A DNA stretch of 64,000 bases, the filler included, from Dimargaris cristalligena (Eukaryota): assembly GCA_003614675.1 (NCBI GenBank). It is 7 parts of 7 records of this genome, joined end to end, with 100 filler letters (N's around TTAATTAATTAA, not from the genome) between each part and the next. Parts side by side here need not be neighbours in the genome. Positions count along the whole stretch, not along the records: positions 37,464 to 46,706 come from ML003277.1; 6 more parts are not named here. One strand, given 5' to 3'. Below are positions 9,274 through 56,105 of this stretch, one piece after another. The position numbers and the translations under genes are program-made. Position 1 is the stretch's first letter. Each line of letters opens with the position of its first letter. The notes below the pieces were generated by a model. It was not told the DNA's origin. It ran no database searches and worked only from the letters and a program-made list of their open reading frames with translations.

Positions 9274-9373
9274 NNNNNNNNNNNNNNNNNNNNNNNNNNN
9301 NNNNNNNNNNNNNNNNNTTAATTAATTAANNNNNNNNNNNNNNNNNNNNNNNNNNNNNNNNNNNNNNNNNNNN
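9274..9373. other. Artificial contig linker
   Basis: N44-TTAATTAATTAA-N44 (stops in all six frames), identical at six places. Confidence 0.99.
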
Positions 9374-12300
9374 GTAGGAACAATTTCAGATTCCACAACT
9401 TGAGCGGCAGAAACCTCAGTCGCAGCTTCTTCAGTAGCAGCAACTCCTGGCTCTTGCACTTCGGCAGCGACAACCAAGGTCTCGGATTCCTCAGTGGGAG
9501 AGGTCTCGGCTTCGATTACTTCTGCAGCAATGGAATCTTCAATGATTGCCTCTACGGGAGCGATGTCGGCCTCGACGGCTTCAGCGGTGGTAACTTCAGG
9601 TTCGACCACCTCGGCGACAGGAGTTTTTTCGACGACCTCGCCACTGGGAGTGGAATCAGCCTGGACATTTTCAGGCTCTTGAACCTCGACAGCGGCATCG
9701 TCGGTGTTGACTTCCTCGACTTCGATAGCAGGGACGGTATCGGTCTCAACAACTTCAACAGTAGCAGCCTTAACCTCGACTTCCTCGACGGTAGGGGTCT
9801 CTTTAACAACTTCAGCCGCGGGGGAAGTCTCGGCTTCGTCACCATTGGACTCTTGCATGGCGGCAGCGGGAATCTCAGCCTCGACTTCTTCAGAAGCGTT
9901 GGCCTCGGGCTCTTGCACTTCGTCGACGACAGCGGCCTCAGTTTCGACAGCCTCGGTGCCCGTAACTTCGGGTTCTTGAACTTCGGCAGCAGCCCCGTCA
10001 GCGTCAAAGGCTTCGGAGGTGGTAGAATCTTCGACAACCTCGGTATTAGCAACTTTAGCCTCGACCTTCTCAACGACAGTGGTTTTGACATCAACCTCAT
10101 CAGTCGCCGTAGATTCTACAACGATCTCATCGACTGGGGTGGTCTCAGTCTCGGCAGCTTCGGCAGGGGCAACTTCCTGCCCGGCCTCCTCCAAGGCAGC
10201 GGATTCATCTGTGACTTCTTCGACAAGAACAGAATCGGCTTCGACGGCGGCAACCTCGGCCTCTACTTCCTTGGCCGCAGCGGATTCGTCGGCAACTTCA
10301 GTGACGGGGGCAGCCTCAACTTCTACAGTATCAGTGATGGCGGTCTCGGAGTATTGCAATTCGGCAGCGGATACCTCGGCCCCAACATCTTCCCCGGCGG
10401 GAATGGCCTCGGCTTCGATGACTTCAGACGGACCGACCTCAGACTCTAGTACTTCGGCAGCGGCAGCCTCGGTGCCAACAGCCTCAGAAGTGGCAAGTTC
10501 GTCGACAACTTCTTCGGCGGGAGCAAGCTCATCCTCAATGGGTTTACCAGCAAGGACGTTGGCCTCGACTTCATCAACGGCAGCGGATTCTTCGACAACT
10601 GCAGTGGCGGAAGCAGCCTCAGAATCAATGACAGCAGATTCTTCCTCTACGTCGGCTGCGGGAGCAGAATCAGCTTCGACGGTTTCAAAGGTGATAACCC
10701 CGATCTCGACTTCCTCGGTGGCGGGTGATTCTTCCACAACGTCGACGAGGGGAGCAGCATCAACCTCGGGTTCTAGCACTTCAGTGGCTTCCACTTCAGT
10801 ATCCACATTATCGGCGGCCGCAGATTCTTGGACGACTTCAACGATAGGAACAGCCTTGGCCTCGACATCTTCAGTAACAGTGACCTCGGGCTCATTCACC
10901 TCGGCAGCAGGTTCGTCCACAAGTTCGGCAGTAGGGGCGGTATCAGCATCAGTATCTTCAGCGGAAACGGCTTCGGGCACATGGACCTCGGCCTCAATAT
11001 TTTCAGCGGCAGGAACAGTCTCAGCCTCTGTTGCTTCAACGGTAGAAACTTCCATATCGGCTTTCTCAACTTCAGTAGTTTCTTCAACGACTTCATCGAT
11101 GAGAGAAGTTTCAGCCTCGACAACTTCTGCGGCCTCGACTTCATCCTCTTGCACTTCGATGGAGGTAACCTCGGCCTTAACTTCTTCAGAAGCAACGACT
11201 TCGCGCTCCTGTACTTCGTCGACCGCAGGGATGTCAGCCTCGACAGTATCGGAAGCAATAACCTCGGTTTCTTGAATTTCGTCAGCGGCAATCTCAGCCT
11301 CGATGGTTTCGGAAGTGGCAGAATCTTCGACAACCTCGGCAGTGATAACGTCAGCTTCGGCCTCCTCAAAGACAGCAGTTTCGGTATCGACATCCTCGGT
11401 CGCTGTCGATTCTACAATGATCTCGTCGACAGGAGAGGCCTCAGTCTCGATAATTTCGGCAGTGGATTCTACGACTTCATCAACGACGGGAGCAGCCTCG
11501 GGCTCTGGCATTTCGGTAACGACAATCCCAGCGTCGACGGTTTCAGTAGTGGCAGATTCTTCGACAAATTCTTTGGCAAGAGCGAGCTCATCTTCAACTG
11601 GTTCATCAGTAACTATGCTGACCTCGACGTTCTCGGTGGCGGTGGATTCTTCTATGACTTCGGACTCCACTACATCAATAGGAGCAGCGACTTCATCGAC
11701 GGGCGACATTTCAACTTTAACTTCTTCGGCAGCGGCAACATCGGCCTCGACGGCAGCGGGTTCTTCGACAACATCATTGGCGGTAGCAGCCTCGGCCTTA
11801 ACTTCTTCAACGGCAGTGGATTCTTCCGAGACATCTTCAACGGGTGCAGCATCTGCCTCGACGGCATCGACGGTGGCAACCTCAAAGTCTACTTCCTCGA
11901 TGGCAGCGGATTCTTGAACGACTTCAGCGGCGGGAGCAAACTCATCTGCTACGGCCTCAGTGCTGACGGCCTCGGGATCTTGCAATTCAGTAGCGGTAAT
12001 CTCGACCACAACTTCTTCCGCGGAGGTAGCGGCATCAGTATCGACGATTTCAGCGGTGGTAATGTCAGACTCGACATTATCGGCCGCAGAAAATTCCTCG
12101 ACTACTTCAGAAGAAACGGCCTTGGGCTCTGGTACTTCGGTAGCGCCAATCTCAGTGTCGTCGGCTTCAGCAGTGGCAGGTTCTTTGATAACTTCTTCGA
12201 CGGAAGCGAGCTCATCCTCGACAACTTCGGACTTCACTCCATCAGTGGGAGCAGATTCTACAGTGACTTCATCGACGGGCGATGTTTCAACGTCGACTTC

Positions 12301-15300
12301 CTGGGCGGCAGAAGTTTCTTCGACAATTTCAGTAGCTCGAGCAATCTTGGCCTCAACAGCCTCAGATGGGGTAGCCTCGGTGTCGACTTCTTCGGCAGCA
12401 GAAACCTCTGCGTGTAAAACTTCAGCAGGAGCGGATTCTTCCACGACTTCGACGGCGGAATCGGTTTGGGCCTCGACGGATTCATCGGTGGTAGCGCCAG
12501 CTTCGACCTCCTCGACGACAAGAGATTCTTCCTCGACTTCGGCAGCGGTAGTAGAATCAGCACTAGCGGCTTCAACAGTGGCAACCTCGGCCTCTTCTTC
12601 ACCGGCACCAGCGGATTCGTCGACAGCATTAGCAACAGCCATTTCTGGCTCTTGCACTTCGACAGCTTCAACCTCGGCTGTCACTTCATCCGCAACAGTA
12701 GAATCGTCGACGACCTCCTCGACTGGAGCAGCCTCGGTCTCGATAACTTCAGCGACAGCGACTTCAGGATCATGCACCTCGACCTCGACTTTTTCAGCGG
12801 GAACAGGTTCGTCCATGTTTTCGGCGGCAGTATCGGCCTGGGTCTCATCGGATTCATTGTCGGCAACGTTGGCTTCGGCTTCGACTTCGGCAGTGATAGC
12901 AGAATCAGCCTCAACGGCTGCAGCAGTGGCAACCCCGGCTTCATCTCCACCGGCACTGGCGGACTCTTCGACAACTTCGATGGCGGGATCGGTTTCAACC
13001 TCAACTATCTCATCGGCAAGGGTTTCTTCAACGACTTTGGCAGAGGGAACGGTATCGGTCTCGACGACTTCAGCTGTGGGAGCTGTCCCGGCTTCCACAA
13101 CTTCAGAATCTGGCACTTCGGTAGCGATTATCTCAGACTCCACTACTTCAGCTACGGCAGAGTCTTGTTCAACTTCAGCGGTGGGTGCGATAGCAGCCTC
13201 GACGACTTTGGGAACAATAGACTCGGGCTCTTGCTCATCAGCAGTAGTTACCTCGGCCTCGGCAATATCAGCGGGAGCAGATTCATCCACGAATTCGTCA
13301 ATTGGAGCAGCCTCAGTCTGATGCACCTCGACAGCAGATTCGTCCACGACATCTGCAGCAGCAACAACTTCATCGGTGGGTTCGGATTCGTCCACGTCTT
13401 CAGCGGTGATATCCGCTTGAACCTCCACGGCTTCATTGTTGGCAACTTCAGCCTCGACTTCCCCGGTGGCAGGGAATTCTTCTACGGTCTCATCGATGGG
13501 AGCAGTCGCAATTTCCACAACTTCGGTAGCGATGTCCTCGGGTACCTCCACTTCCTTAGCGGCTGCCGATTCTTCGACAATTTCATCGGCGAGAGCAGTA
13601 CTACCTTCGACACTTTCATTAGCAACAACCTCCGGCTCCGGAACCTCGGTGGAGACAACCTCGGCGTCGAGTTCTTGAGCGACCGCGGATTCTTCAACGA
13701 CATCAGCTGCCGGAGTAGTCTCGATCTCGGCAACCTCATCAACAACGACTTCGGGCTCTGGTACGTTGACTGCGGATTCTTCCTCAATGTCAGTGGTGGA
13801 GGCCGTAGCAACCTCGACTACTTCGGCAGCAATAGGCTCGGGCTCTTTCTCGTCGGAAACAGCAACTTCGGCCTCGACAATATCGGCGGGGCTGGATTCG
13901 TCTACGACTTCGGCGGTGCTATCGATGTGAGTCTCTACGGATTCACTGACAGCTACCTCAACTTCAACTTCCTCGACTTCGACAGCAGGAACGGTATCGG
14001 CCTCAACGGCATCGGTGTTAGCAACCTCTACCTCGTCATCACCAGCAACAGTGGACTTTTTGATGACTTCAGCAACAGCAATCTCTGGCTCTTGCACTTC
14101 AGTAGCTTCAACCTCGGCCTTCACTTCATCGGCGGCAGCCGATTCTTCAACAACGTCGGCAGGAGCAACCTCGGCCTCGAATTCTTCAGTGGGAGCAGTT
14201 GCAGCCTCGACAACAGCAATGTCGACCTCGACTTCTTCAGCGGCAACGGTCTGTTCGCCAACTTCAGTGGTGGGAAAGGCATCAGCCACATCAACTTCGG
14301 CGATGGCGATCTCAGCGTCGACTTCTTCAGTGGCAACGATTTCGCGCTCTTGCACTTCGTCAACAGAAGCGGTCTCAGTCTCGACAGCCTCGGTGGCAAT
14401 AACGTCGGCAGTGGTAGAATCTTCGACAACTTCAGCGGTGGTGGCGTCAGCCTGGACATCCTCAACGGGGAAGGTTTCAGCATCGACTTCCTCAGCAGAT
14501 ACAGATTCTGCAACAGCCTCATCGACTGGAGAGGTCTCAGTCGCGACTTCTTCGGCAGCGACAACGTCGGCTTCGACTAATTCAGTAACAGCAGCCTCTT
14601 CCTCAACTTCGGCGGGGGGAGCAACCTCAGCTCCAGTTTCCTCATCAGCAGCAGACTCCTCTACAACTTCGGCAACGGGAGTAGTCTCAGCTACCTCGAC
14701 GGTTTCGAAAGTGGCAACGTCGGCCTCAAAGGTAATTGTTTCTTCAATGGCCTCGTCTACGAAAGCGACATCAGCTTCAGCGGAATCAGTAATAGCAATT
14801 TCGTCTTTCACCACTTCAACTGCAGCCGATTCTCCATCAATTGTATCGATGGGAACTGTCTCGGCCTCAACGTTTTCAGTAGCATGATCCTCAGGCTGTT
14901 CCACTTCGGAAGCAACAGATTCCTCGGCAACTTCAGTTGCGGGAGCAGCCTCAGCCTCGACGGATTCGCTGGCTATTACTTCCGTCACTTGAACATCGGC
15001 GGCATCATCCTCAGCCATAACGAATTCTGGTTCCTGCACTTCGGCAGTAGAGGCGATGACATCGACTTCCTCAGAGGCAGGGGATTCCGCCACAATTTCA
15101 ACCGTGACATCCTCAGCCTCCACCTCTTCAGCAGATGCGGATTCTCCAATGACTTCGGCGACGAGATCGGTTTCAGCGTCGACTATTTCAGTGGCAGTAA
15201 CCTCTAACTCCACTTCTTCAACAGGGGAAGCGTCGGCCTCGACAATGTTGGCGGTAGAGACTTCAGATTCTAGCTCATCGGCGGCTGCAATCTCGATATC

Positions 15301-18300
15301 ATCAACAACAGCGATAACGGACTCCTCAGTTACATCAAGGGCAGGAGCGGCGTCGGCTTCGATCACGTCATCAGCAATAACCCCGGCCTTAACCTCCCTA
15401 GCGGCAGAGGATTCTTCCACGGCTTCCTCGATGGGCGCGGTGTCTGATTCGACAACTTCGTCGGCAGAAACAGACTCGGCCTCGTCGGTTTCAGAAGCAC
15501 TAACCTCGGGTTCATGCACGTCGGCAGCGGATTCTTCAATGGTATCGGTGAGGAGAGTGGTGTCAACCTCGACTGCTTCGCTAGTAACAACCACGGGCTC
15601 AGGTTCATCGGCGGCGGATCCCTCAACAATCTCAGTGGTGGGAGCGGCGTCGCCTTCGGGCGCTAGCACTTCGACAGCGGCAACACCGTCCTCGATTTCC
15701 TCGGCGGAAACGGATTTTTCGACAGCATCAGTTGAGGGAGCAGACTCGGCCTCTTCGGCTTCGACAGTGACAGTTTCTTCGAAAACTTCGACCGCGGAAA
15801 CCTCGGCCTCAACTTCTTCAGCGGCAACAGATTTTTCCTCGGCTTCAGCGGAGGGACCAACATCAGTCTCGACAACTACAGCGGTAGCAACATCAGCCTT
15901 AGCATCTTCGACAGCAGCAGATTCGTCAACAGCTTCATAAGTCGTGACATCGGGGACTGGCACTTCGGCAGCGGCAGCGTCAGTCTGGATGGCCTCAGTA
16001 GGGACGGACTCTTCCACGATTGCAGCAGCAACAACCTCGGGTTCTTGCACTTCGGTGGCGGCAACTTCAGTGTCTGGAGTAGTCTCATCCTCGAAGGCTT
16101 CCACACTGGCAGATTCTACAACAACATCTTCAGCGGGAGCAGTCTCGGCTTCCGTATCTTCAGGGGTAGCAGACTCTTCGAAAACCTCGTCGGCGATTGC
16201 AGATATTTCTGCTGCTTCTTCCGAAAGGGCGGGCTCGTCCTCGATGGCATTATCAGCAATGACCTCGACCTCAACATTCTCAGTAGTAACGGATTCTACA
16301 AAGGCTTCAGTGACAGCGATCTCTGGCTCCTGTACCTCGGTAGCGTCATCCTCGGCTTGTACTTCTTCAGCGGCAAAGGATTCTTCGACGACATCAACAA
16401 CGACCTCGGGTTTTTTCACCTCGGGAGCAGTTTCTTCCACGAGTTCAGCGGCGGGGGCGGTATCGGCTTCGGGGGCTTGCTCATCGGCAACAGCAACTTC
16501 GGTTACGGCGTCCTCAGCGGCAGGAGATTCGTCCACGGCTTCAATGGTGGGGACAACTTCCGTCTCAATGGCTTCGGCAGTGACAACCTCGGCCTCCTCA
16601 GAAGCAGCGGGTTCTTCCACGATCTCATCGATCGGAGAAGCTTCCATTTCATCAACTTTGGTAGCGACAACCTCGGGCACCTCCACTTCATCGGCAGCAG
16701 CCGATTCTTTGGTGACTTCGGCGGAAGGAGTGTCCTCAACCTCAACTGCTTCAGCAATAATAGACTCTTCGGCAACTTCTTCGATGGGAGTGGCCTCGGC
16801 CTCAACAATTTCAGCGACAACAGCCTCCGGCTCAGGAACATCGACGGTGGCAACCTCAGCAGACACTTCATGAGCGGTAACGGATTCTTCGACGACTTCG
16901 CCAACAACCGCCTCGGGTTCTTGCTCATCGACAGCAGTAACCTCGATCTCGGCCTCTTCTGTGGCAGGTGATTCTTCGATGACCTCCTCAGTGGCAGCTA
17001 ATTCTTCCACCGCATCGTCAGCGGGAGCGACATCAGCCTCGGCAACCACGGTGGCGTCAACCTTGACCACAACCACCTCTGACACAGCGGACTCTTCAGC
17101 AACTTCTCCTGCAGGGCTGGTCTCAGCCTGGACGACTTCAGCAAGGACCGCAACCTCGGGAAGTTCGACAGCGTCAGTCTCTGTCTCCAATTCATCGGCG
17201 ATAGCGGATTCTTCCACGGCTTCAACAACGGGAGCAGTCTCGGCTTCCAAGACTTCGGGGACAGTATCAGCCTCTGCCTCGATAGATTCAGGGGCAACAA
17301 CCTCGGCCTCATCTTCTTCAGTGGGGGCGGGTCCTCCTACGACATCGGCGGCGGCAACATCAACCTGTACAGCAATCGACTTTTCAATGACTTCATCAAC
17401 AGGAGCGACATCCGCCATGACTATTTCGGCAGCAATAACCACGGGCTCTTGTTTATCGGCTACGGCCTCTTCCACAGTTTCAGCAACGGTAGCAGCTTCG
17501 ACTTCGGGCTCTTGGACCTCAACATCAGCAATGGCAACTTGGGCATCGACCTTATCAGCAATACCGGACCCTTCGACATCTTCAGTGGCTGGAGAAGCCT
17601 CAGACTCGATGACTTCAACGGCAGCGGATTCTTCCGCTACTGCGGCGGCGGGGGCAGCATCGGCTTCGACGGATTCAGAGGCGGTAATCTCGGCCTCGAC
17701 TTCCGCGACGGTAGGAGTTTCTTCCATGACTTCGTCGACAGTAGAAACATCAACCTCGGGCTCTTGTACTTCGGTGGTGACTACTTCAGTCTCGATTACC
17801 TCGGCAGCCATGGGTTTCTCGACATCATCTTCGGCGGGGACAGCCTCGGCCTCGACAACTTCAGCAGCGGTGATCTCGGCCTTGTCGACTTCAGCAGCGA
17901 TACCCTCAGCCTCAACTTCGTTAGAAACAGAGGATTCGTCAATGACTTCAGCGGCCGGGGAAGATTCAGCCTCAACGACTTCAATGGCGGCAACCTCGGG
18001 CTCAGACACTTCGGCAGCGGCAGCAGATTCCTCCACAATAACGTCCGTGGGGGCGATCTCAACATCGACGACTTCAGCAGCAGCGGGTTCTTCTACGACT
18101 TCGTCAATGGGGGTGGCCTCAGCCTCAACACCCTCAGTAGAAATGACTTCCGGCTCTTCGACATGAGCGACGGCAACCTCGCCCTCAGTTCCTTCAGTGG
18201 CGGCAGATTCTTCGACAATTTCGGCACTACGAGTACCCTCAGTTTCCACGACTTCGTCAATGGGAGAAGGCTCAGCCTCAGCAGTTTCAGTGGTGGCAAC

Positions 18301-18639
18301 TTCCACCTCGACTTCTTCAGTGACATCGGATTCTTCAGAAGCTTCAGGGACAGGAGACGTTTCAACCTCGACCTCGGCGGCCGAAGATTCCTCGACAATT
18401 TCATCGACAACAGAAGTCTCGGATTCCACAATTTCAGCAGAAATGGCCTCGGGTTCTTGCTCTTCGGTAGTCGCAACTTCGGCCTCAACTTCCTCCACAA
18501 TAGCGGACTCTTCCACGACTTCGGCGGCGGGGATCGACTCGGCTTCAACAACCTCAGTATTCACGACCTCCAGCTCTTGAACCTCGGTAGTGGTAACCTC
18601 GGTCTCGATTTCGATAGCCGCGGCAGACTCTTCAATGTC
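9374..18639 (-). CDS. Giant acidic Glu/Ala/Val/Thr-rich degenerate-repeat protein (>3080 aa, partial; fills the whole contig)
   Basis: Uninterrupted frame of about 9.27 kb running off the left contig end. No start Met: an in-frame TAA at 18640-18642 lies 6 nt from the contig edge (possible intron end or edge error). Degenerate ~10-aa units such as AEVVEESAAA, TEVQEPEVIA, EAETSPVDE. Confidence 0.9.
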
Positions 18640-18648
18640 TTAATAGTG

Positions 18649-18748
18649 NNNNNNNNNNNNNNNNNNNNNNNNNNNNNNNNNNNNNNNNNNNNTTAATTAA
18701 TTAANNNNNNNNNNNNNNNNNNNNNNNNNNNNNNNNNNNNNNNNNNNN
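18649..18748. other. Artificial contig linker
   Basis: N44-TTAATTAATTAA-N44. Confidence 0.99.
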
Positions 18749-27676: not shown

Positions 27677-28008
27677 GTAAGCTCACTATATAGTTATCAT
27701 TGCTTCTAAGGTATTTTTTAGATGTTTTAGGCGGTACTCACTCACTGACATCCGGTAACCTAATACTATCATCAATGAGTATAGGGATGGGGATGAGAAA
27801 AGAGGAAGAGGATTCCCTATGATTACAATGGTATCCCATCCATATGTATCGAATGGTCGCCAACCTGCCACGAACCCGTGCCTTCCTCCCATCCATTGGG
27901 ATATGCTGGTATCAGAAATCATTACTGACACCTCCCAAGGGGATGGGTGCGGCCGGGTGATGTGTGATGTGCAGGGGTTATGAGGGATCCACCTTTTCTT
28001 TAGTTCCT

Positions 28009-28108
28009 NNNNNNNNNNNNNNNNNNNNNNNNNNNNNNNNNNNNNNNNNNNNTTAATTAATTAANNNNNNNNNNNNNNNNNNNNNNNNNNNNNNNNNNNN
28101 NNNNNNNN
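28009..28108. other. Artificial contig linker
   Basis: N44-TTAATTAATTAA-N44. Confidence 0.99.
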
Positions 28109-34350: not shown

Positions 34351-35180
34351 CGGACCCATCCGACCCTTCCCTCTCCTGACTTAACCCACTCTCCACAGCC
34401 TACACCACCTCCTGGGTTTGGATCACCTTCGATTTTCCATCTCCGCTAACATCGCCGTACCGCGGAAACCACCCCTCTCCCACCTTAGCCTTGCTGCTTG
34501 ATTTTGTTTAAGCCAGCGCCCTCCCCCCGCATATCTGCGATTATTCCAGCCGGTTTAGCTCGACCCGGTCCAGGCATTCGAGGTCTATTTTTAAGCCCAT
34601 TCCCGGATCCGGCAGTTCCCATTGTGTTCGCTGCAGTAGTGGCTAGCTTACGGCGCCAGTTGCGTCCCTCCTTCTCCTCGTTTCTCACTTTCACCCAGCC
34701 GTTCTAATTTAGGCAGACTTCGTAGATTGTCATCCACCTGCTTGAACTACTGGTGGCGGTCAATCTTTTCTCCCTTAGCCTTCATTACCTCTCTCTCGCT
34801 CCGCTTTCTTTTCTCTCTCTCGTTCTGTCGTCTGTTTAAGGCAGCTGCTCCCAGACATTGTTGGGCCTTCTTAAAGACTCACCCCCTGGCCTTAGCTTAT
34901 TCCCTTGCCCTTTCTTGCCTTTATATCTCATTTTAATTACGGACATCATTGATCAATCCCTACTAATTACTGTCTGCTGATATATATATATATATACCTC
35001 TCCTGACTCTCTCCCTTCCTCCAACTCTGCAGCCCTTAGCTTGCCTATTCCTACTACCAAACCTTTACTTCCCACTGTTCAGTAGTTCTTGTCTCTCGCT
35101 CTCTCACTCAGTGTGTATATAATATTTTTCTTACAGTTTCCATATACCTCCTCTCTTTTCTAAACCCCCCCCTTTCCATA

Positions 35181-36764
35181 ATGACTGATAAAGAGGAGGT
35201 CGCTATAGCCCACGTCGAGGGCGGTTCGATGGGCAAGCCCCGGCGGCCCGACGAAAACTGGTTCAAGCACCGCCTCCGGCTACTCGCTTCCCGCAAGTCC
35301 CTAGACCAAATTCTGCGGGAAGGCAACGCTTCCACCATGAAACGGTCGCTCACCGCGTGGGACCTGACCATGATTGGGGTCGGCGCAATTATCGGCGGTG
35401 GTATTTTCGTCCTTACGGGAGTGGCCGCCGCCAAATACGCGGGTCCGGCCATCATTGTGTCCTTCATCATTGCGGGGGTGTGCGCCGGTATCGCCGCTTT
35501 CTCGTATTCGGAACTGGCGTCGATGGTGCCTATTTCGGGGTCCGCTTACACCTATACGTATGCGACCATGGGCGAATTGCTGGCCTGGATTATCGGTTGG
35601 GACTTGATTCTGGAGTACTTGGTGGGTGCAGCGACCGTGGCCGTGTCGTGGTCGTCGTATCTGGTGGCTCTGTTCAAGGATGCGTTCGGTGTGACATTGG
35701 ACCCACGGACCACGAGCGGACCCGTGATTTGGGACGGCTCGACGTTTGTGCGCACGGGCAATATCATTAATATTCCTGCGATTCTGATCGTCTTGCTCAT
35801 CACCGTGGTCCTCGTCGTTGGTATCCAGGAATCGGCGCGCCTGAACATGGCCGCCGTCCTCATTAAAGTGCTGGTCGTGCTCATTTTCATCTTCGCCGCC
35901 TGCGGTCGGGTGGATCCGGCCAACTACAAGCCATTCGTGCCGCCTGCCCAGGACGGCAAGTACGGCGGACTGGGTATCATTCGGGGGGCTAAAACGGTCT
36001 TCTTCGCCTACATTGGTTTTGATGCCGTTTCGACCGCCGCCCAGGAGGCCAAAAACCCCAAACGGGACCTGCCCATCGGGATCATCTCCTCTCTCATCAT
36101 CTGTACCACCCTGTACATCGCCACCGCTGCGGTTGTGGTGGGCCTCCGCCCGTACTACGAACTGGACGTGGCCCATCCCATTTCCTTCGCTTTGGAAAAC
36201 ATGAGCAACACCCGATGGCTCCGTATTCTAGTGGATATCGGTGCCGTCGCGGGTTTATTATCAGTGATGCTTATCCTCATGATGGGGCAACCCCGGATTT
36301 TCCATACCATGGCCAAGGACGGGATGCTACCTAGCCTGTTGGCCCGCATCCACCCGCGCTTCCGCACCCCCTACATCCCCACGATTATTACGGGGGTGTG
36401 CTGTGCCGTACTGGCCGGCTTCCTGCCGGTGGATTTATTGGGCGATATGACGAGTGTGGGCACCCTATTAGCGTTCTTTCTGGTCCACGCCGGGGTCATC
36501 ATCCTCCGCTTTACTAATCCCGATATGCCCCGGGGGTTCCGAGTGCCGCTGGGACCGTTTGTCCTACCCGTCCTGGGGGGAGCTATTTCCATCGCCCTCA
36601 TTGTCCTGTCAGAACCGACCACGATTTACCGGCTATTCGCCTGGCTGGGCATTGGCCTGATTGTCTACGCCATCTACGGGCACCGCAAGTCCCATCTCAA
36701 TTTCCCCCGCGAAAATGAAGAAGTCGAACCCGATTACGGCTACACTGCCACCGGCCACGCCTAA
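35181..36764 (+). CDS. APC-superfamily amino acid permease (CAT/SLC7-like, resembling bacterial YfnA/ApcT type), 527 aa, intronless
   Basis: TM1 GVGAIIGGGIF, AGPAIIVSF, YSELASMVPISGSAYTY, GWDLILEY, TM6 FFAYIGFDAVSTAAQEAKNPKRDLPIGI, QPRIFHTMAKDG, SVGTLLAF. Confidence 0.95.
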   Translation: MTDKEEVAIAHVEGGSMGKPRRPDENWFKHRLRLLASRKSLDQILREGNASTMKRSLTAWDLTMIGVGAIIGGGIFVLTGVAAAKYAGPAIIVSFIIAGVCAGIAAFSYSELASMVPISGSAYTYTYATMGELLAWIIGWDLILEYLVGAATVAVSWSSYLVALFKDAFGVTLDPRTTSGPVIWDGSTFVRTGNIINIPAILIVLLITVVLVVGIQESARLNMAAVLIKVLVVLIFIFAACGRVDPANYKPFVPPAQDGKYGGLGIIRGAKTVFFAYIGFDAVSTAAQEAKNPKRDLPIGIISSLIICTTLYIATAAVVVGLRPYYELDVAHPISFALENMSNTRWLRILVDIGAVAGLLSVMLILMMGQPRIFHTMAKDGMLPSLLARIHPRFRTPYIPTIITGVCCAVLAGFLPVDLLGDMTSVGTLLAFFLVHAGVIILRFTNPDMPRGFRVPLGPFVLPVLGGAISIALIVLSEPTTIYRLFAWLGIGLIVYAIYGHRKSHLNFPRENEEVEPDYGYTATGHA

Positions 36765-37363: not shown

Positions 37364-37463
37364 NNNNNNNNNNNNNNNNNNNNNNNNNNNNNNNNNNNNN
37401 NNNNNNNTTAATTAATTAANNNNNNNNNNNNNNNNNNNNNNNNNNNNNNNNNNNNNNNNNNNN
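37364..37463. other. Artificial contig linker
   Basis: N44-TTAATTAATTAA-N44. Confidence 0.99.
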
Positions 37464-38301
37464 CCGTTCTCTCCAAAACGCCTAGACAACAAAGAGAGGC
37501 CCATCCGATGGTTATATGGTGTATAATAAGTATCGCTGGTGTTTGTAGCCAAGGTTTAATAGGTATCAGAATGAAACAAGGGAACTTCAACCGCCACATC
37601 GCCATTTCGGGGGTTTGCCCGCTTGGACCTTTTCTTGGCTAGCTGGTGGCGGTAAACCGCACCCAAAACCCGCGGTCCTTCTGGTATGAGATGTAGTGAT
37701 ATACCCACGGAAGTTTGGCTTAGGAAAGTGGTCCTTGGACGTCTCAAAGATGCGTGCTTCGTTGTAAAAGTCCGCGCCCGTTTATTTGGTGATGGCTGAT
37801 GGTGAAGCCCGCATAGGGTCACAAGGCGGGTGGGCAATCGGTGTAGGTTTAATAAAAGAGCAGATAGTCAGAAACCATTGGCTGCCGAGTCCTGCGACGA
37901 TGCCAAGCCTGCCGACGACCAGCTTCCACTCTACCATTCTATTATAAGTAACTATTCTTATATATACCCTTTGCGGGGGGTGACTTATCGCCCCACACAC
38001 ACACACGGTAAGCCTTCTGACTGTCGTAAGCCTTTTTTTAGCTACCCCGATATCCTCTCCCTCTATACCCACGTTCTTCGCATTCAGTGTTTCTATTGCA
38101 AGTCACTTGTGTTCCCACATTCCTTGCTTTTTTACCATTTCTCCACCCTTGGCAACTCCTCGCATTCACCCATTGCCTGCCTAGTAAAGTATTGTTTCAC
38201 CACTAGCACCAGCCTCCCTCCCCCTTCCCCGGCGCTCTAGCCGCCGAACCGACTGACTTCCTTCCCCTCGCCCAACTCCTCTCCCTCCTCCTTTCGCGGA
38301 T

Positions 38302-39486
38302 ATGCCCTTGCCCCCAGTGGTTCTCTTTCTGGCCGGCAGTGCTGCCATTGCCGCTGTGGTGGGTGTTATTCTGCTCCACGAAGCCAACCGCCAACGTTGG
38401 GAACACTCCGAGCACCACCAACATCGCCAAGACAACCACCAATACCACCAGCAACACCACTGGCATAATACCTGTGAGTCCAATGAACCCCGCCATGATA
38501 CCCACACCAACGAACCCGAAAACCACATTTCACTGGACGAGCTCAACCGCCCCAAAGAGCCGGAGAAGCAGCCCCACGACCCCGACCAGAAGGTGCGACA
38601 CCGTACCCAAGGACAGCGTCGTTCAGGGACCTCCTCTTCATCATCATCATCGGCGTCGGCGTCGAAGCCGGCCCGTCGTCCCGACCAGAGCCAACGGGAT
38701 AGCTACTACGAGAGTGTCCAGCAGGAGCACTCCTACCTGAAGGCCATGGAACAGGACAACGAACGGCGTCGCCAGGAATTGCTGTCCGAGCGGCAGCAGC
38801 TGAAGGAACTCGAAGCGGATGTGGAAGCCCGTCGGCATCGACTGGCCCAGGCGGGGGAGGGTAACGGAGTCTCACGGTCGACTAGCGGAGCCACGTTATC
38901 GGCCGCATCGGGGACTAACAACCCGTGGCTGCCGGGCAGTAGCGTCCGTGTACCCGGCTCCCCTCCCACGCTCTTCCAGTCCGCTCCCCATAGCCCCCCC
39001 AGGGGAGGATCCGTGGTCGACCAGGTCGTTCCCTTTACCCTACCTATGAGTGCCCCCACTTCGACCGCCCCCCCGTCACTGCCGGACCACCTCCTGTCCC
39101 CCGGGTTTCAGAGCCAGTGGAGTGGACGGGACGCCTCGCGCCTGCTGATACCGACGTCCCCTCCGGCGTCGGACCCCTTCTTCTCCGCCCACGAGCCCTC
39201 CACTAGCCCGTCCATGAACCCGTTTCCCCATACCCCGTCCCTGTCCAGCGTCGGTGCCCCGCCGGTCCCGCTGCCCTCCCTTATGCTCAGCCCTACGGCC
39301 CTATCCGCCCGCATGAGTGATATGAGTACCGTACTCACGGCCTTGGAAGACAGTCACGAGTCCCTGCCGATGCACGCGCCCTCCAGCACGTCGTCCCGGC
39401 TCCGGGGAAGCATTGCCGCAATGAGACCCCCCTCCGAAGACAGCTGGGTGGAACTCCAGGACCGGTATTCCGACCGGAGTTTGTAA
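38302..39486 (+). CDS. Hypothetical N-anchored membrane protein, 394 aa: TM helix, His/Gln-rich tract, coiled coil, Pro/Ser-rich tail, C-terminal LIR-like SEDSWVEL
   Basis: Long GC-rich ORF with coding-type codon bias; hydrophobic VVLFLAGSAAIAAVVGVILL; charged helical segment LKAMEQDNERRRQELLSERQQLKELEADVEARR. Confidence 0.88.
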   Translation: MPLPPVVLFLAGSAAIAAVVGVILLHEANRQRWEHSEHHQHRQDNHQYHQQHHWHNTCESNEPRHDTHTNEPENHISLDELNRPKEPEKQPHDPDQKVRHRTQGQRRSGTSSSSSSSASASKPARRPDQSQRDSYYESVQQEHSYLKAMEQDNERRRQELLSERQQLKELEADVEARRHRLAQAGEGNGVSRSTSGATLSAASGTNNPWLPGSSVRVPGSPPTLFQSAPHSPPRGGSVVDQVVPFTLPMSAPTSTAPPSLPDHLLSPGFQSQWSGRDASRLLIPTSPPASDPFFSAHEPSTSPSMNPFPHTPSLSSVGAPPVPLPSLMLSPTALSARMSDMSTVLTALEDSHESLPMHAPSSTSSRLRGSIAAMRPPSEDSWVELQDRYSDRSL

Positions 39487-40735
39487 TGGTATAATCAGAG
39501 CCTGATCATTATGCCTAACAGACTCGGAGTGGTTTTGCTGGGCCCGCTTTCATTGACGTAATGGACGCTCAGTGAGTGCCTTTACAGTTTCTTGTAACCC
39601 CCCGACTGGTGTTTTTACTTGCCCTCCCCGCTTCCTCGCCCCCCTTTTTTTCTCTACCTCACTGCCTCACAGCTATACTCATAGTACAGTATACCTCTAC
39701 AATTACCACTCTACCATATATGTATTTCTTCACGACCGCTTTAGGCCATTTCGATATGTATTCATTCGATATATCCCTTCGACTTTCTATCTTTTGGGGG
39801 TATCGACCGTCACTCTCAGTAGAGATTACTAAGCGACTCTGGTGCATTCTGGATCTCTAATAAATTGCCTCCACTCGCATGTAATGAATCAAAATGCACC
39901 CATTTCCTACTCACCCGCTATATTTTATATGTCTCAATACCAACGACAGGCATTACCACACCGCCCCACTTCTATTCCGAGTTTTTTTTTGGGTCGCGAG
40001 CCCTAAGGTTTGTGAGACGGCTACAAAACCTGGGGGGCCGTCATTTTACGGAGGGACATCCACAGCAGCTCTACCCAGAAAACCGGATATCGCGCAGTGA
40101 AGCCCGAGCTTTGCTGGGTTAAGGTGACCCATTGGGCCTTCGCATATTATCGGTTTTAGCCCATCAAATCCCCTTAGAAATTACATTATGGGAGGGGTTC
40201 AACTATGCTATACACCAAAAAATCCGTTGGATGAGCCAAGAAGTACTACTGGTTAAAAATGAACCTCCTGTCTATTTTCTCATACACACATCATTTCAAG
40301 CCTTATATAGCTGGGCTGGATTTCACCCATATATACCCTTCAACAGGGAAATCTAATACAATTATATAGAAGGCAGAATATAAGTTTAGGGGTGAAGAAA
40401 GGGGGGGGATATACTGTTAGCTAGTAAACCATGTCCCATCAACCTGTGCATTTGTTCCATGGCACGGCACGGCTGAGCCCAGTCCTTTTGGGGGTCGCTG
40501 TATTTCCACCCACCATACCCTCTAGTCACCCTTGTTGGAGCCAAGCAGATGGGCCAAAGAGGAGGGCTTCACAGAGTAGGCGATGGAACCAGCAAGACCA
40601 GCCAACCTTTCAATCCATTGGACAATGTGGATGACGGTGAATTCAAGAACAGCAGCCGTCTGCTCGAAAACTATGCACATCTCCCCTCTCCTTTTCCTCG
40701 CCTCGTCGAATTTACCATTGGGCTGAGTCGCAAAT

Positions 40736-40766
<31 letters not shown>

Positions 40767-42165
40767 AAAGAGAAATACTAGTCATCCGGCTAATCAATGG
40801 AGGCAAACCCAGATATTTATAGACCCGCTCTATGTAGAATAATAGGGGATGTTCAATCTGATTGCACAACGATATGTTCGGTTGATTGGCCCACTCCGAA
40901 TACCTCAAAGGGCTATTTGTTACTTGGGAGGAACAGACCTCTCTCTCTACACAATGGGCGGGGATATAAACCTGGTGTGGTGCTTTAGTGCTATCGACAG
41001 TGTGGTTCCGTTATAGGCTAGTGGGAGGAATATGGGGACGACGCGTATAGGGGTTGGCTTCATTTTTCCCGTATAATATGCCGATAAAAGGGTAAAAATG
41101 AATAAAGGTATATAATTTACTTCAACTTGGTATAACTTATCGAATTTTGGCGCATTTAAGGCTTATTTTAGTTGTGCAGAGGGACTCAGCGTCTCCCATA
41201 TGATTATTGATACGGAAATAGCTATGGCAAAGAACCCTCTTGGACTAGAGGGGGGCGGCAGGAGTTGCTTTTGATAGAAACCGACACGTACCAATACGCT
41301 CGTTTAGATGACTGTTGTGGTGGCTATTGTATTAGTCAAAATACCCATTTCGTTTCGAATAATTCGCGATGGTTGAAACGCCATATAGACCGAATGGCCA
41401 CAAGGGAAAGTAGCACAAGCAAAATCTACCGCGGTCTTCTCGCGTACGCTACTCTACCATTTCCGTTAGCCAACCTTCATCTGCTAGAGTGAATTCGCAG
41501 CAAAAAGCAGTGAAATATAAATAAGTGTTGTTGGCGGTGGTCTATACATAGGGAGGGTTTGGCTTTACTCCCTGTATAGTTTCATAATCGACCCCAGGCA
41601 AGTGCCGATTAAATGGAATACTTCAAGTGAAATCCGCCGCAACGCCTTCGTAGTTTATTATATTTATCCAACCCCTACTTTGTCATGGGAGAAGTTATTG
41701 GTGGGGGGACATAATGCCCCCAGAAAAAAAAGCGAACAGCTAAATCTAATATCCACGACGGCAGCAGAAGGAGTCTTGTGCTTCATTGCTATGGCCTTTT
41801 GTTGGTCTAGAGAGAAACGCGAACTTGGAAAGCACCAATCAGCAATACTGGTGTTCCCAAACTGTCGACTTGCGAAACGTACCAGCAAAACGGAAAATCC
41901 CGTTAAAATAGTTCTATAGACCAACCGCTAACTGATCAGTAGAGGCGGCCCGTCGGAGGGTCCTTTAGGCGGGTAAAACGGTATAAAGCGTAGTGGGTGT
42001 CTTGTGCCGATTAGCCCGCCATTCCTATCTTTGAAATTATCTCTGCCCCCGTAGTGAATTAGGTCACCTATTCGGCATTATTATTTTTGCTAATTCTCGA
42101 CGCTTAGGCCATTCTACCCTTCCAACAGCCTGGCCGTTAGAAACATCTCCTTGCTATCCGCCATT

Positions 42166-44027
42166 ATGCAGCCTCGCTATATTGGCCTACTTTCCCTGGC
42201 CGTACTCAGCCTCTTGCTCAACAGCTACTGCGGTGCTAGCGCTACAAACAGCAACCAGCTGGGGACCAAAGAGAAAACTGGACTCCAAGATCAAGTCTAC
42301 CTTGGATCCGGCCAAAAGGAGGGCTTTGCGTCAAATGAAGCTCTACTGGGTCACAGTTCGAATAGCAAAGGATCTGATAGCACCAAGACGTCTGCCGAGA
42401 TTGATCGATTATCTATACTACCCGGTGGGCTCCTTGACCGGATTTTGGACATATCCCTCAATGCTAAAACATACCCTGAACTAATGAAAACCTCCAGAGT
42501 GGTAGCGCGTCGAACCTTAGACAGGCCCACTGTAAGAGTCCTGGTAAGTGTGAACCATATTGTCTATAGGTTACTGGAGACAAAGTATTCCTGTTTATAT
42601 AGCTGCATCCGGGTGGCGCGTGCTAATGTGTTAGAATAGGTGACAGAGTCGGCATCCGGTCTATATGTGTAAGGTCCAAATATACCCTGTTTTCTGCAGC
42701 TTATATGAGTGTATATACGCCGATATTCCTTACAAAAAGCCTCCGAATCGTACTGGCTTTATTTTTCTACGAAATCTAACCAGTGCCTTACAATTCCACA
42801 TCGCCAACTACCCATACCTAGATGGCCTATGACGAACTCCAAGCTAGCCTTAAAAGATATGAATACTATCACGATATCGATAGTCCGGAACCGAGAGAGA
42901 GATCTGCCAAAATCCTGAAGGCTAACCGGGTAACTAGGCGCCATAATCGTCTAGTAGCGACCCGGGCCACTTTTGATCCCTGGCAAAAGCTACTCCGCCA
43001 CCAGTTCGCCATATTATTTTGGAGATATGCCTGTGTTACTATTCGTACCGCCTACACTGTTGAGAATATCGACGGAGCCGAGAGGCTTACATCCGAAACT
43101 GGTGGCATTGATAAATATCATCTTCATAGCCTCCTGATAATTGGCCAAGGTAGCCCTGCTTTCGAACAAGACGCCCGGCGATTCATCGATCCGACCCAAC
43201 TGTCACCAGATACCCTGACAAAACAATTGCCGCACCTACACTTGGTGGAGGTATATAAAAACTCCTCCGAAATTATCGAGGTACTTGTCACTCTGACCAA
43301 CCCCCGATTGCATGGATTTGTTAATTCTGAATGGAAGCAAGCCCGAGTATCCGAAAATGGCTATGCGAAGGGTCCCTTGGTAAACTTAGTCGAGTTTTTA
43401 TGGAAACCTGACTACAGCGAGGGATTGGAGAATCCTTTCATAGAAATAGCTACCGCTGTGACCGCCCAAATTATGGCCTATTTGGCTCTAAAGGGATACC
43501 ATGTCCTGTTTCACGAATTCGTGGCCGGCCTCCGAAAGACCCAAGCCGGCTACAGGACTGATTATCGCTCAAGTCTCGGTGAATTCGGCACATTGGCCGT
43601 TATATTGGGGGCCATTACTGGCCAAGTGGACCTGGTGCGTATGCTGCCCCACAACATTATCGGCATTCCCCCCGATTCCCGGACGCCTCCCACGATGCTT
43701 CAAGATAACTGCTCTATAGCCAAGGTAATGCACCAGATTAATTTGGTCAAGAGCGCGGAGTTTCTTGAAGCAACCCTGGAATGCCCAAAATCTAGGTTTG
43801 ACCAACTACCTGAAGAGGACCGAAAAGCCGATGAGCCCAACTTTAGATATCTCCGGCAATTACGACTCGTTGACAGTGGCGAGGTACCCCAAATGGGTGT
43901 ACCGGTTATTATTTCAGAGTTTAGTGCCCACTACAGAACGTGGCTTACAGATCTTGGGCCTTGGGAACACGATTATAATTGGAAGGTTGGCGAATTGTTT
44001 CTCGACCAACGACCCGACCGAGTATAG
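42166..44027 (+). CDS. Secreted hypothetical protein with F-box-like segment; 2 exons (42166-42543, 42822-44027), 527 aa
   Basis: Signal peptide MQPRYIGLLSLAVLSLLLNSYCGASA. Phase-0 donor CTG|GTAAGT and acceptor CCTAG|ATG join two ORFs that the track lists separately. Confidence 0.8.
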
Positions 44028-46706
44028 TCCCAAAGCGAAGTAAATCTATAAATCATCGTTGGCTACGTTTTCCTCTCTTGATTTTAAGCTACATATATGT
44101 GCCCAATTGACCAAGTCCACTTTGTGGGCCAGTATTACCTTAATAAAATCCAAACCGTGACTATAATGATAGCCCTGTACCAATACTTCCCCTCTCAGTA
44201 CTTCAAATTGATTGTCCCGTCTGCGAGCTCTTGTTTAATACTGAACAATGGTGATATGTGAGGTGTTGGTGGATGGGTAAATGAATTACCGGGCTTACTA
44301 AGTGAGAGATTTGTAAGATTTGGTCCGATAAATTAAGTTTTTAATTGCTAATAGGTTATGGCTGCTTGCCTACACTCTCTACCAGATGTGGTCCAAAGCA
44401 ACTCCATTCAAGTGCAGGTTTGTACATGGGATTATAAAACTACAAAAAGGGGTGTCCCTTTACGCCTATTCAGTCATTTCAGAATTAATTTTGCTAATTT
44501 CTGTGGGGCCCATGCTGGTTTGTAATGGTGTTACCGTCATCAATCGTTTAGACCGTCCTTATTGTTGCCTGCCTACTGTCTTAGCTCAGATAACATACAC
44601 ATCACCGGCCAACATACTATGAATGTCCCGGCTCACGGTCTCTCATTACAATAATGTCCGAATAATAGACCTCGCAATCGTTCACCTAGTATTCTACTTA
44701 TATCAGAGCAATCATATTGAGTTTTCATATATGGAGCTTACCGCTATTGCCACCAAGAGGGGAGGGTTATTATCTTAATCCATGTGCTATTGCACTGGCG
44801 GTACTTCACTTAACAATACACCAGTCATGGGTATGTTACACCCGGTAAATAGTACATGCGGAGAGAAGTGTGTTATAATAATCAAGTGCATATGGTAGTT
44901 ATAGATAATTAAAGGAATGCTAGTCCAGACTCCAAGGCGTACAACTGCCTACAGTTATAGGAGGTTGCGGTATTTAATATAAGCCTGTATATAGACTCAT
45001 TGTTGGAAATGTGTGGTCGACATTGGAATACTACACGGTCTTGTGAATCATATCTACAAGAGGGTATACTATATAGAAATGTGGTATTTGACCCGAGACT
45101 GCATTTATTGTCGCCTTCTACAAGTATTTAATGCCATTACTTTGGCACAATTATATTTGGACCTGCAGGATTACCCTTCTCTCCAGTCGCCATTATACTA
45201 AATTAAATGATGCTGCTCAGAAGAGGCTCGCTTATAATTGAGCACGATGGTGCCATATTAATAGCTATTCAATCCTATTTTTTCCCAACACCCTACTATA
45301 TCTATTTTATTGTGGGTGTATCAACAGGCCAGTGAAAATGGTCAGTTTTGGAAAAGGGTCACTGAGTAATGGAAAACAGTTACCATTGATAGTAAGGCCA
45401 AACCCGGGGTCTCACAAGATTCAATCTAACCATCGCGGCTTTTCATCGAAGTTCGCGTTTCCAGAGAGGGCAAATAGATGAATTACGGAACGGGGTTGGC
45501 CCCCATACCTTCTGCCCGCCAGGGGCGCCATAATTGGTGAGGGGGGGAGTATACCTTGTATTTTTAGGTGGCTGTACTGCCCAGATCATGGGACTATGTA
45601 ATAGTAATCCGGCTTACCTCATGGCCAATATCGTTCCCTGCCGATTGCCATGAATAGGTGGGCCTTGGTCCCTAGTCCATTCAGATCGAGCCCCCTGACT
45701 TAGTCAAGAACAATTAAACCACAGTGTTGGGGGTTGGGAGATCCCTGTTTAATATAGCCAGCATATGATTGCCCAAATAATACTGATATGCCGCCACTGG
45801 GCTAATTCATACCGGCACCAAGCTAGAAACGCACATTTCAGGAAAACTCACATCTCTTCAATTAATCGTTTATGGCATTGTAAGGAGGGTTATTCACAGG
45901 CTGCCATCCATAGCATTGTTAACCGCGGTATGTGGCCCGCATGCCTATATAACTTAGCGGTGAACTACTCATGTTTGAAGGGTAGTTGAGTTACCATGGT
46001 GTCGACTTTACTATAAAGCAAACCGCCGGGATGTCAATTGATTACTATTAAGGCGAGGTGCGTTTCTTGGGCGAGCTATGTTGAAGCCTGGGTTGAATAG
46101 GGAGTATGGACAATGGTTGGGGGTTGGTCATGTTGGTGATTATTCATGGCTGGGCTTGGCGCAAAGCAGGCCGCGCGGATCTCGTTTTTGAACTATTTTA
46201 ATTTGGCCTGGCAGGTTTTAAATAGCACTTAAAGCGGGAACTGGAAGCTCCTTTGGCCTACTTTTGGATACCTTTTTCCTAGTCCAACTACTTTAGCCAG
46301 TCGTCTTCCAGCGACTTTCGGATTAACCAGCTTAATTGGCCTGGCCGCTCGCTTCTTCGGTGGTATTTCCTGAGGCACTGTTACGTCTTCCGACTTCCAG
46401 TTCGTTAATGCATTACTGCAGCCTTCCAACTCGTGAGGGCCTGCTTCAGTGCCGGCGAACGAGGAGACGGCGGCCATCCACGGTGGTGGGAATTACCCGG
46501 CATTGCGGCTGACACATCTGGACTCTGATAGACTGCCGACATCACTCCTTCATTGTGGCCCACCAACACTGAGTCTATTTTAAGGGGGCTGAGAAAGGAC
46601 TCCCTGTCGACAAGTCCGCTTATCCCGGCTGGCGGTGTATTATATTCCCTTTTTTTCCCCTTACCTGGTGTGTGCTATTGTGTTGACCATCCCGCAGGAG
46701 ACAGCT

Positions 46707-46806
46707 NNNNNNNNNNNNNNNNNNNNNNNNNNNNNNNNNNNNNNNNNNNNTTAATTAATTAANNNNNNNNNNNNNNNNNNNNNNNNNNNNNNNNNNNNNN
46801 NNNNNN
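46707..46806. other. Artificial contig linker
   Basis: N44-TTAATTAATTAA-N44. Confidence 0.99.
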
Positions 46807-50730: not shown

Positions 50731-51047
50731 AATCTTCTAACCTGCTGGCTTAGTGTAATTTGACAGTGGGGCGCGGGTGTTATTGAGAGCATTCCTTTAC
50801 CTTTTTTTTCTGTGGAATAGGCTGGTGGGGGAGTAGCAGTGGTGCACCGTAGGTACTTCGGATTTTTTTGTAGTATACTTGAATTCGCCATTGTGCTTGT
50901 ACCATTTCTTTTCCTAATGTATTTTCCGCTCTAATTCTGGTCACTAACTTTACGTGTGGACTTGCATTCATCGAGTTCTCTATATATTTTCTTTTCTTCC
51001 ACCAACGTTCATATTGTTTCCATTCCGTACATTTCTTATCAACCAAA

Positions 51048-56005: not shown

Positions 56006-56105
56006 NNNNNNNNNNNNNNNNNNNNNNNNNNNNNNNNNNNNNNNNNNNNTTAATTAATTAANNNNNNNNNNNNNNNNNNNNNNNNNNNNNNNNNNNNNNN
56101 NNNNN
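56006..56105. other. Artificial contig linker
   Basis: N44-TTAATTAATTAA-N44. Confidence 0.99.

Follow-up and report, generated by a model that had tools for sequence, protein, structure and literature searches.

Introduction

Organelle autophagy receptors are driven by short motifs, evolve fast and vary between lineages. Fission yeast, for example, lacks Atg39 and Atg40 and has Epr1 in their place (PMC9346472), and most fungi beyond the two model yeasts are without a known receptor for endoplasmic reticulum (ER)-phagy, mitophagy or pexophagy. According to Rudinskiy et al. (PMC12431859), receptors for organellophagy combine a membrane tether with an intrinsically disordered region (IDR), facing the cytoplasm, that is net negative and longer than 47 residues, with the LC3-interacting region (LIR) at least 24 residues away from the membrane. 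TEX264 is built in this way: it has about five lumenal residues, a single N-terminal transmembrane segment (TM) and the LIR FEEL at residues 273-276 (of 313), towards the end of a disordered spacer for which length, and not sequence, matters (PMC6971691); its IDR is net negative (PMC12431859). For NIX, PMC5430633 reports that phosphorylation of two serines ahead of the Trp of the motif SWVEL lifts the affinity for LC3B about 100-fold, and that BNIP3 has one such serine. Atg39 of budding yeast and CCPG1 of vertebrates are single-pass proteins with an Atg8-interacting motif (AIM) or LIR and a second motif for Atg11 or FIP200 on a disordered cytosolic region (PMC6971691), and PexRD54, an effector of Phytophthora infestans, carries the AIM WEIV at residues 378-381 of its disordered C-terminus (PMC5025708). 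Here, we analysed a 64-kb stretch of DNA from Dimargaris cristalligena (the whole of it is called the window below), in which a gene at 38302..39486 encodes a protein of 394 amino acids (aa), P0001, that an earlier, sequence-only reading had proposed as an undescribed selective-autophagy receptor.

The protein belongs to a family that is real, conserved and previously unnamed, and its design is of a known kind, that of a membrane-anchored LIR receptor of the TEX264 type. We regard it as a credible candidate for a new organelle-recycling receptor. That it is, in full, a lineage-restricted and phospho-regulated organelle autophagy receptor is a possibility which we put forward tentatively on the strength of its sequence.

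Anatomy of the protein

The open reading frame (ORF) starts at the first ATG past an in-frame stop codon at 38254-38256, and its GC content at codon positions 1, 2 and 3 is 0.65, 0.53 and 0.73, the remainder of the surrounding piece of DNA having a GC content of about 0.45. The hydrophobic helix, His/Gln tract, coiled-coil-like segment, Pro/Ser-rich arm and terminal motif of the sequence-only reading are all present where it had placed them. Structure was predicted by AlphaFold2 (AF2) from the 8-row family alignment, with confidence given as the predicted local distance difference test score (pLDDT). The protein is divided as follows.

38302..39486, plus strand: complete single-exon ORF (open frame), 394 aa and a stop codon.
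38314..38376, plus strand: N-terminal hydrophobic helix, aa 5-25, a predicted signal-anchor or single TM (Kyte-Doolittle score, conservation).
38377..38472, plus strand: juxtamembrane His/Gln-rich helix extension, aa 26-57 (the AF2 helix 5-57 runs on from the TM).
38473..38685, plus strand: poorly conserved linker with charged residues and Ser runs, aa 58-128 (pLDDT < 50 over most of aa 61-119).
38686..38865, plus strand: long conserved coiled-coil-like helix, aa 129-188, with the signature E[YH]S[YH][LM]..ME[QR].
38866..39297, plus strand: Ser/Pro-rich disordered arm, first part, aa 189-332 (pLDDT < 50).
39298..39351, plus strand: second conserved short motif, aa 333-350, ..S-x-[MV]-S-D..S-T-[VI]-x-T-A-[LM]-E (weakly predicted helix).
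39352..39432, plus strand: disordered arm, second part, aa 351-377 (pLDDT < 50).
39433..39456, plus strand: SEDSWVEL, aa 378-385, a candidate Atg8-interacting motif with the core W382-V-E-L385 at 39445..39456, followed by nine residues.
39457..39483, plus strand: C-terminal tail, aa 386-394, Ser-containing and acidic, with a hydrophobic last residue.

Only at the N-terminus does the mean Kyte-Doolittle (KD) score exceed 1.0, peaking at 2.72 over aa 6-24. The corresponding segment scores 2.30-2.72 in all eight family members, so that a membrane-tethering module is predicted. Its apolar core spans 19-22 residues in the five of the eight members that were measured and is preceded, in all eight, by a flank of 4-7 uncharged residues without Lys or Arg; M1, P4, G12 and G21 are invariant in the family alignment.

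Three helices are predicted by AF2, at aa 5-57, aa 129-188 (pLDDT 94-98) and aa 331-349 (pLDDT about 50), with values below 50 elsewhere, aa 348-394 included. The most distant member, from Piptocephalis, has helices at aa 6-66 and 131-190 and is disordered in the remainder, and thus follows the same fold plan. Between anchor and central helix, aa 28-135 of P0001 hold 14 His and 12 Gln. Within the 15 residues past the TM there are 4 His in P0001, 6 in its relative P0002 and 3-6 across P0001 and the Dispira proteins; two Dimargaris relatives (P0006 and P0004) have CxxC...CxC where P0001 and the Dispira proteins have this His-rich stretch. His-rich or CxxC...CxC, the juxtamembrane stretch could be a membrane-adjacent metal-binding site.

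In the helix at aa 129-188, residues E137, E142, S144, M149, E150, L160, E163, L167, E171, R178 and L181 are invariant, and the heptad a positions form a clean stripe (V139, L146, N153, L160, L167, V174, L181). Beyond it, 39 Ser and 31 Pro are found among the 190 residues of aa 186-375, and Ser, Thr and Pro together make up 0.44 of the P0001 arm past the helix and 0.29-0.44 across the members. The last residue is hydrophobic (L/F/F/L/L/M) in six of the seven full-length members, with a Ser 1-3 residues ahead of it, a combination that could form a recognition element of its own at the C-terminus, for instance one that depends on phosphorylation.

Relatives and conservation

Seven relatives of P0001 were found, all of them hypothetical proteins of mycoparasitic Zoopagomycota (Dimargaritales and Piptocephalis). 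They come from Dimargaris xerosporica, D. verticillata, Dispira parvispora, Dispira simplex (two copies), Tieghemiomyces parasiticus and Piptocephalis cylindrospora, and are 29-35% identical to P0001 in the Dimargaritales and 23% identical in Piptocephalis; P0001 and the Dimargaritales members share the start MPLP-, and the piece that carries P0001 is thus probably from a fungus of the Dimargaritales. The full-length members are seven including P0001, the eighth record (D. verticillata, P0004) being marked partial and lying on a contig of 1244 nt. Each genome holds one or two copies, without expansion. The two copies in Dispira simplex are in line with that assembly, in which 59% of the BUSCOs are duplicated (PMC9866270). 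The same paper describes the Dimargaritales as mycoparasitic and as the earliest-diverging order of Kickxellomycotina, and Piptocephalis is described in PMC6784888 as a biotrophic mycoparasite of the Zoopagomycotina.

An exhaustive phmmer scan over 1.84 billion representatives returned five proteins at E <= 0.001, P0001 included, and a profile built from only the conserved helix recovered eight at E <= 10, all of them family members. Word-index searches with the whole protein (P0001 itself as the sole match of 8000 scored) and with the alignment over the whole length (3 of 7999 scored) found little because they were swamped by low-complexity words. No Pfam family lies above the cut-off for P0001 and none matches more than two of the eight members; a profile search of the PDB gave six matches (E 0.01-0.8), each of them a generic coiled coil covering the helix, and a search of the ESM Atlas with the whole protein and with aa 1-190 gave a best feature score of 0.80 and TM-scores of at most 0.45, without a usable lead. 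The phmmer scan, as far as its sensitivity and the completeness of the genomes reach, turned up no relatives in Syncephalis or Thamnocephalis, and saprotrophic Kickxellales are absent from the five proteins it listed; 171 Kickxellomycotina genomes are described in PMC9866270. This mycoparasite-only distribution may simply be due to the rapid divergence of a protein that is largely disordered. In a literature search whose scope ended short of subscription journals and supplements, we found no description of the family or of any selective-autophagy receptor from Zoopagomycota.

Conservation along the protein was expressed as pairwise identity over five non-redundant lineages; the partial record was left out, as were both Dispira simplex proteins, whose sequences nearly duplicate the D. 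parvispora row.

aa 1-25, anchor: 0.36
aa 26-128, linker: 0.14
aa 129-188, helix: 0.36
aa 189-332, arm, first part: 0.12
aa 333-350, second motif: 0.38
aa 351-376, arm, second part: 0.12
aa 377-386, W motif: 0.41
aa 387-394, last residues: 0.11

Four islands, the anchor, the helix, the second motif and the W motif, thus stand at 0.36-0.41 against 0.11-0.14 in the four other stretches. The sequence-only reading had expected the TM, the coiled coil and the WxxL core to be the conserved parts, and these three are indeed islands; the expectation is largely borne out, with aa 333-350 as one additional island. This second motif is kept in six of the seven full-length members, Piptocephalis retaining only S..SD. 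Being rich in Ser, Thr and Asp around aliphatic residues, it agrees with yeast Atg11-binding regions as loosely described (PMC6971691). Its amphipathic moment does not exceed that of shuffled versions, 36% of which reach it.

The terminal W motif

The octapeptide S378-E-D-S-W382-V-E-L385 maps to 39433..39456 and ends nine residues from the C-terminus, as the sequence-only reading had stated. P0001 contains two cores of the type [WFY]xx[LIV], at Y136 and W382, and W382 alone fits the extended LIR (xLIR) pattern published with iLIR (PMC5119064). Counted without any alignment, exactly one xLIR occurs in each of the seven full-length members, always as S-W-[IV]-[ED]-[LV] and 7-24 residues from the C-terminus; the partial record P0004 has no match. 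The W-type motif is fixed throughout the full-length family, on a background that has diverged. Among 20,000 composition-matched shuffles of each protein, a W-type xLIR fell within the last 35 residues in 0.27-0.59%, compared with seven out of seven in the real full-length sequences.

The 7-row alignment adds detail. Ser at X-1 and Trp at X0 are invariant, X1 is aliphatic, X2 is always Asp or Glu and X3 is Leu or Val in every full-length member, and the ten residues ahead of the Trp hold 1-2 acidic residues and 2-4 Ser or Thr in all seven. S-x-x-[DE] is the consensus of casein kinase 2, and the invariant Ser stands in this context because X2 is always acidic. The motif lies within predicted disorder (aa 348-394) and would thus be accessible. 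In a proteome-wide LC3B screen, affinity was determined mainly by a Trp at X0 and by acidic residues in positions X-1 to X-3 (bioRxiv 10.64898/2026.01.05.697675). The core that binds the claw of FIP200/Atg11, psi-Theta-x-x-Gamma, is given in PMC7946963 as an acidic residue or phospho-Ser/Thr, a bulky hydrophobic residue, and Leu, Ile or Val at +3. As a pattern, S-W-x-x-[LV] satisfies this core as well in all seven full-length members, and therefore one element could serve contacts with both Atg8 and Atg11/FIP200.

Two other readings of the W motif were rejected. An FFAT-like motif needs a small residue at position 5, where the family has Leu or Val, and in a kinesin W-acidic motif the residue after the Trp is not aliphatic as it is here.

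The receptor reading and its mechanism

How would such a protein work? In the mechanism that we propose, the conserved N-terminal helix of about 20 residues would anchor the protein, with some four residues emerging on the other side and the remainder facing the cytosol. The cytosolic part would then consist of the helical His-rich juxtamembrane stretch, the 60-residue helix, with a probable role in self-association or in binding a partner, and a disordered, net-acidic arm some 200 residues long bearing the short motif at aa 333-350 and the near-terminal W-type Atg8-interacting motif. The anchor would mark an organelle membrane, most likely that of the ER, and the long arm would let the terminal motif reach Atg8 on the forming autophagosome. 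Phosphorylation of the invariant Ser ahead of the Trp would turn on binding, in the manner of NIX, BNIP3 and TEX264. It is thus Atg8 binding, topology, organelle, phospho-regulation and a function in degradation that we infer, from the anatomy, the family and the conservation that the analysis shows.

Traits described for organellophagy receptors recur in this family: its arm is long and net negative and its candidate LIR lies far from the anchor. The part past the anchor has a net charge of -4 to -24 in all eight members (His not counted), and the W motif is 234-384 residues away from the anchor in all seven full-length ones. Predicted disorder, acidity and distance together agree with the earlier proposal, in which a candidate LIR is held on a long disordered arm away from the anchor.

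If the receptor reading is true, the protein would be the first candidate of this kind in Zoopagomycota, and the TEX264-type solution, a minimal anchor, a long acidic spacer and a terminal phospho-LIR, would have arisen independently in fungi. It also illustrates a rule for discovery: a single alignment-free LIR match stays fixed while the arm around it diverges.

Orientation of the anchor

A signal peptide has a basic n-region, an h-region of about 7-15 residues and a polar c-region with a (-3,-1) site. By this heuristic the N-terminus does not resemble a cleaved signal peptide, as no Lys or Arg lies ahead of the core, the core is long and there is no polar c-region; the (-3,-1)-compatible sites are all inside the apolar core. 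For signal-anchors, an uncharged short N-terminal flank combined with a long apolar core favours translocation of the N-terminus. The sequence favours an uncleaved anchor with a short, translocated N-terminus on the lumenal side. By the general rules for such segments, a KD score of 2.3-2.7 together with a C-terminal flank that is not basic would suit an ER anchor of the TEX264/P450 type better than a signal anchor of the mitochondrial outer membrane.

Arguments against the receptor reading and alternative explanations

Several observations weigh against a cytosolic Atg8 receptor. The flank past the TM is not net positive: within 15 residues, the eight members have 2/3, 2/2, 2/3, 1/1, 2/2, 1/2, 3/7 and 4/3 basic (K+R) to acidic (D+E) residues, and the Tieghemiomyces protein, at net -4, points the wrong way. 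The positive-inside rule gives no answer on topology because these flank charges are balanced or mixed. The Ser/Thr/Pro share of the arm would also suit an O-glycosylated lumenal or extracellular stalk. The xLIR pattern is weak when taken alone, since it occurs at any position in 18-30% of the shuffled versions, and the iLIR authors themselves count 27 true matches but a further 20 that are unverified (PMC5119064). Within the helix, the invariant E142 and E163 occupy two heptad d positions and N153 one a position, which would be unusual in a plain homodimeric coiled coil and suggests a specific partner or register; with Glu invariant at d, simple homodimerisation is not evident. As a FIP200-interacting region (FIR) or Atg11-binding region, the motif at aa 333-350 was tried and rejected, as it has Ala at Gamma and so fails the strict core consensus. 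Three short Atg8 motifs were sought across the window, and none was found. Finally, the family is tiny, with eight records from about five lineages.

The protein may instead be a membrane-anchored cytosolic scaffold or tether, with the 60-residue helix as its main module and a terminal motif that binds a partner other than Atg8, which we consider unlikely without setting it far aside. Candidate partners would be SUMO (through a strand resembling a SUMO-interacting motif, SIM), Atg11 alone, a 14-3-3 protein that recognises the Ser-x(1-3)-hydrophobic C-terminus, or a lineage-specific protein. Such a scaffold would account for the helix, which is the longest and best conserved element and whose invariant polar core residues suggest a specific partner, for a second conserved motif to which no partner is assigned, and for the hydrophobic last residue with its nearby Ser in six of seven members; short hydrophobic/acidic motifs are, moreover, as degenerate as the shuffles indicate. 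Yet the invariant Trp (7/7) and the aliphatic X3 point to an aromatic pocket, of the Atg8 hydrophobic pocket 1 (HP1) or claw type, and all flank features match those of high-affinity LIRs. The SUMO groove takes aliphatic residues, as the SIM consensus reflects.

A type II or secreted Ser/Thr/Pro-rich protein, with its C-terminal part as a glycosylated lumenal or extracellular stalk and a W motif that never meets Atg8, appears improbable to us. An N-terminal hydrophobic segment could direct translocation into the ER, the flank charges do not force the C-terminus into the cytosol, the composition of the arm would be apt for a stalk, and there are small residues that would satisfy the (-3,-1) rule. 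The segment is nevertheless anchor-like in its uncharged flank, its long core and its lack of a polar c-region, the arm carries a net acidic charge, five of the eight proteins lack N-x-S/T sequons and no sequon is conserved, and five of the eight have only 1-2 Cys. A charged helix of 60 residues together with acidic, Ser-rich short motifs is typical of cytosolic regulation. Over the eight proteins, six sequons were observed, whereas shuffles of 30-residue blocks held 20.8 +/- 3.9 and 0 of 2000 had so few; as the rows are related, this count is not used as evidence.

It is highly improbable, in our view, that the family was evolved by biotrophic mycoparasites and acts at the parasite-host interface, either membrane-borne or exported, with the W motif capturing the Atg8 of the host fungus. 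If it were, host autophagy or membrane supply would be diverted to the haustorium, in a fungus-on-fungus counterpart of PexRD54; more generally, should the restriction to mycoparasites prove genuine, the family may be relevant to the way in which fungus-feeding fungi handle the membranes of their hosts or their own. To an effector or interface protein that is exported towards the fungal host and engages host Atg8 with its AIM, as PexRD54 does in plants, we give very little weight: beside that precedent and the mere presence of an N-terminal hydrophobic segment, its support is the origin of every detected member from mycoparasites, of two subphyla, while the segment is conserved and anchor-like rather than signal peptide-like, copy number is low, and no relatives were detected, within the sensitivity and completeness given above, in the mycoparasites Syncephalis and Thamnocephalis, which were sequenced in the same study as Piptocephalis (PMC6784888).

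Genomic context

The 64-kb window is made up of seven joined pieces of about 9.2-9.3 kb each. The six spacers between them consist of N44, TTAATTAATTAA and N44, forming a six-frame stop linker. Genes outside 37464..46706 are no neighbours of the P0001 gene, because the window consists of separate joined pieces, and gene neighbourhood was for this reason discarded as evidence on the protein.

37464..46706: piece carrying the P0001 gene, 9243 nt, equal in length to the longest contig listed for P0001 in the protein database.
9274-9373, 18649-18748, 28009-28108, 37364-37463, 46707-46806 and 56006-56105: the six spacers.

The sole other long ORF on the piece of P0001 lies at 42822..44027 on the plus strand (401 aa) and is without a Pfam match (E <= 1e-5). 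On the minus strand of 9374-18648, the whole piece is one uninterrupted frame, listed as 9322..18639 and 3105 aa long from stop to stop, again without a Pfam match. Its first 400 residues (P0009) are degenerate, highly acidic repeats rich in Glu, Val, Ala and Thr, and it is overlapped by many long ORFs on the opposite strand, as expected of repetitive, compositionally biased DNA. The remaining pieces carry ordinary eukaryotic housekeeping genes, as judged by Pfam. All features in the following list are on pieces other than that of P0001.

2225-4255, minus strand: WD40-cyclophilin.
26546-27709, plus strand: class-V aminotransferase.
35040-36764 (also listed as 35181..36764), plus strand: amino-acid permease.
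50883-51677, plus strand: Rpb5.
52228-53775, minus strand: WDR55.
54321-56057, plus strand: Vps51/Exo84-type N-terminal domain.
56732-60460, minus strand: ORF of 1242 aa without a Pfam match.
60558-61346, minus strand: Mad3/BUB1 region.

Comparison with known systems

With PexRD54 the family shares an AIM-type motif at the disordered extreme C-terminus and an origin in a parasite that feeds on living host cells. PexRD54 is, however, a secreted RXLR effector made of WY domains, whereas P0001 and its relatives have a conserved anchor and no folded effector domain. Atg39 and CCPG1 resemble P0001 in pairing an AIM-type motif with a second short motif on a disordered arm; their motifs are N-terminal and their C-terminus is lumenal, which sets them apart.

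The likeness to BNIP3 and NIX lies in the motif itself, S-W-V-E-L in P0001 and in the Tieghemiomyces protein being identical to that of NIX (PMC5430633), where the Ser next to the Trp tunes affinity when phosphorylated. The polarity is opposite, with an N-terminal anchor and a C-terminal motif in P0001 and no C-terminal TM. There is no match to the BNIP3 family of Pfam for P0001 at E <= 10 or for the eight members at E <= 1. As the sequence-only reading had supposed, what is shared is a short motif, without the BNIP3 domain or a tail anchor, and the resemblance is one of convergence rather than homology. The same reading described the layout as the reverse of tail-anchored BNIP3; as an arrangement this is not new, an N-terminal anchor with a C-terminal LIR being already found in TEX264.

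TEX264, the vertebrate ER-phagy receptor, is the known system whose layout comes closest, and P0001 resembles it in its predicted minimal lumenal end, N-terminal TM, long disordered arm and C-terminal LIR. No sequence relationship between the two was detected, and the P0001 family is without a GyrI-like or other globular domain, as judged by Pfam and by the AF2 models of two members, which show helices and disorder only. The LIR is F-type in TEX264 and W-type in the P0001 family, the arm of P0001 is about twice as long, and the family has, in addition, the 60-residue helix, the His-rich or Cys-bearing juxtamembrane stretch and the second motif.

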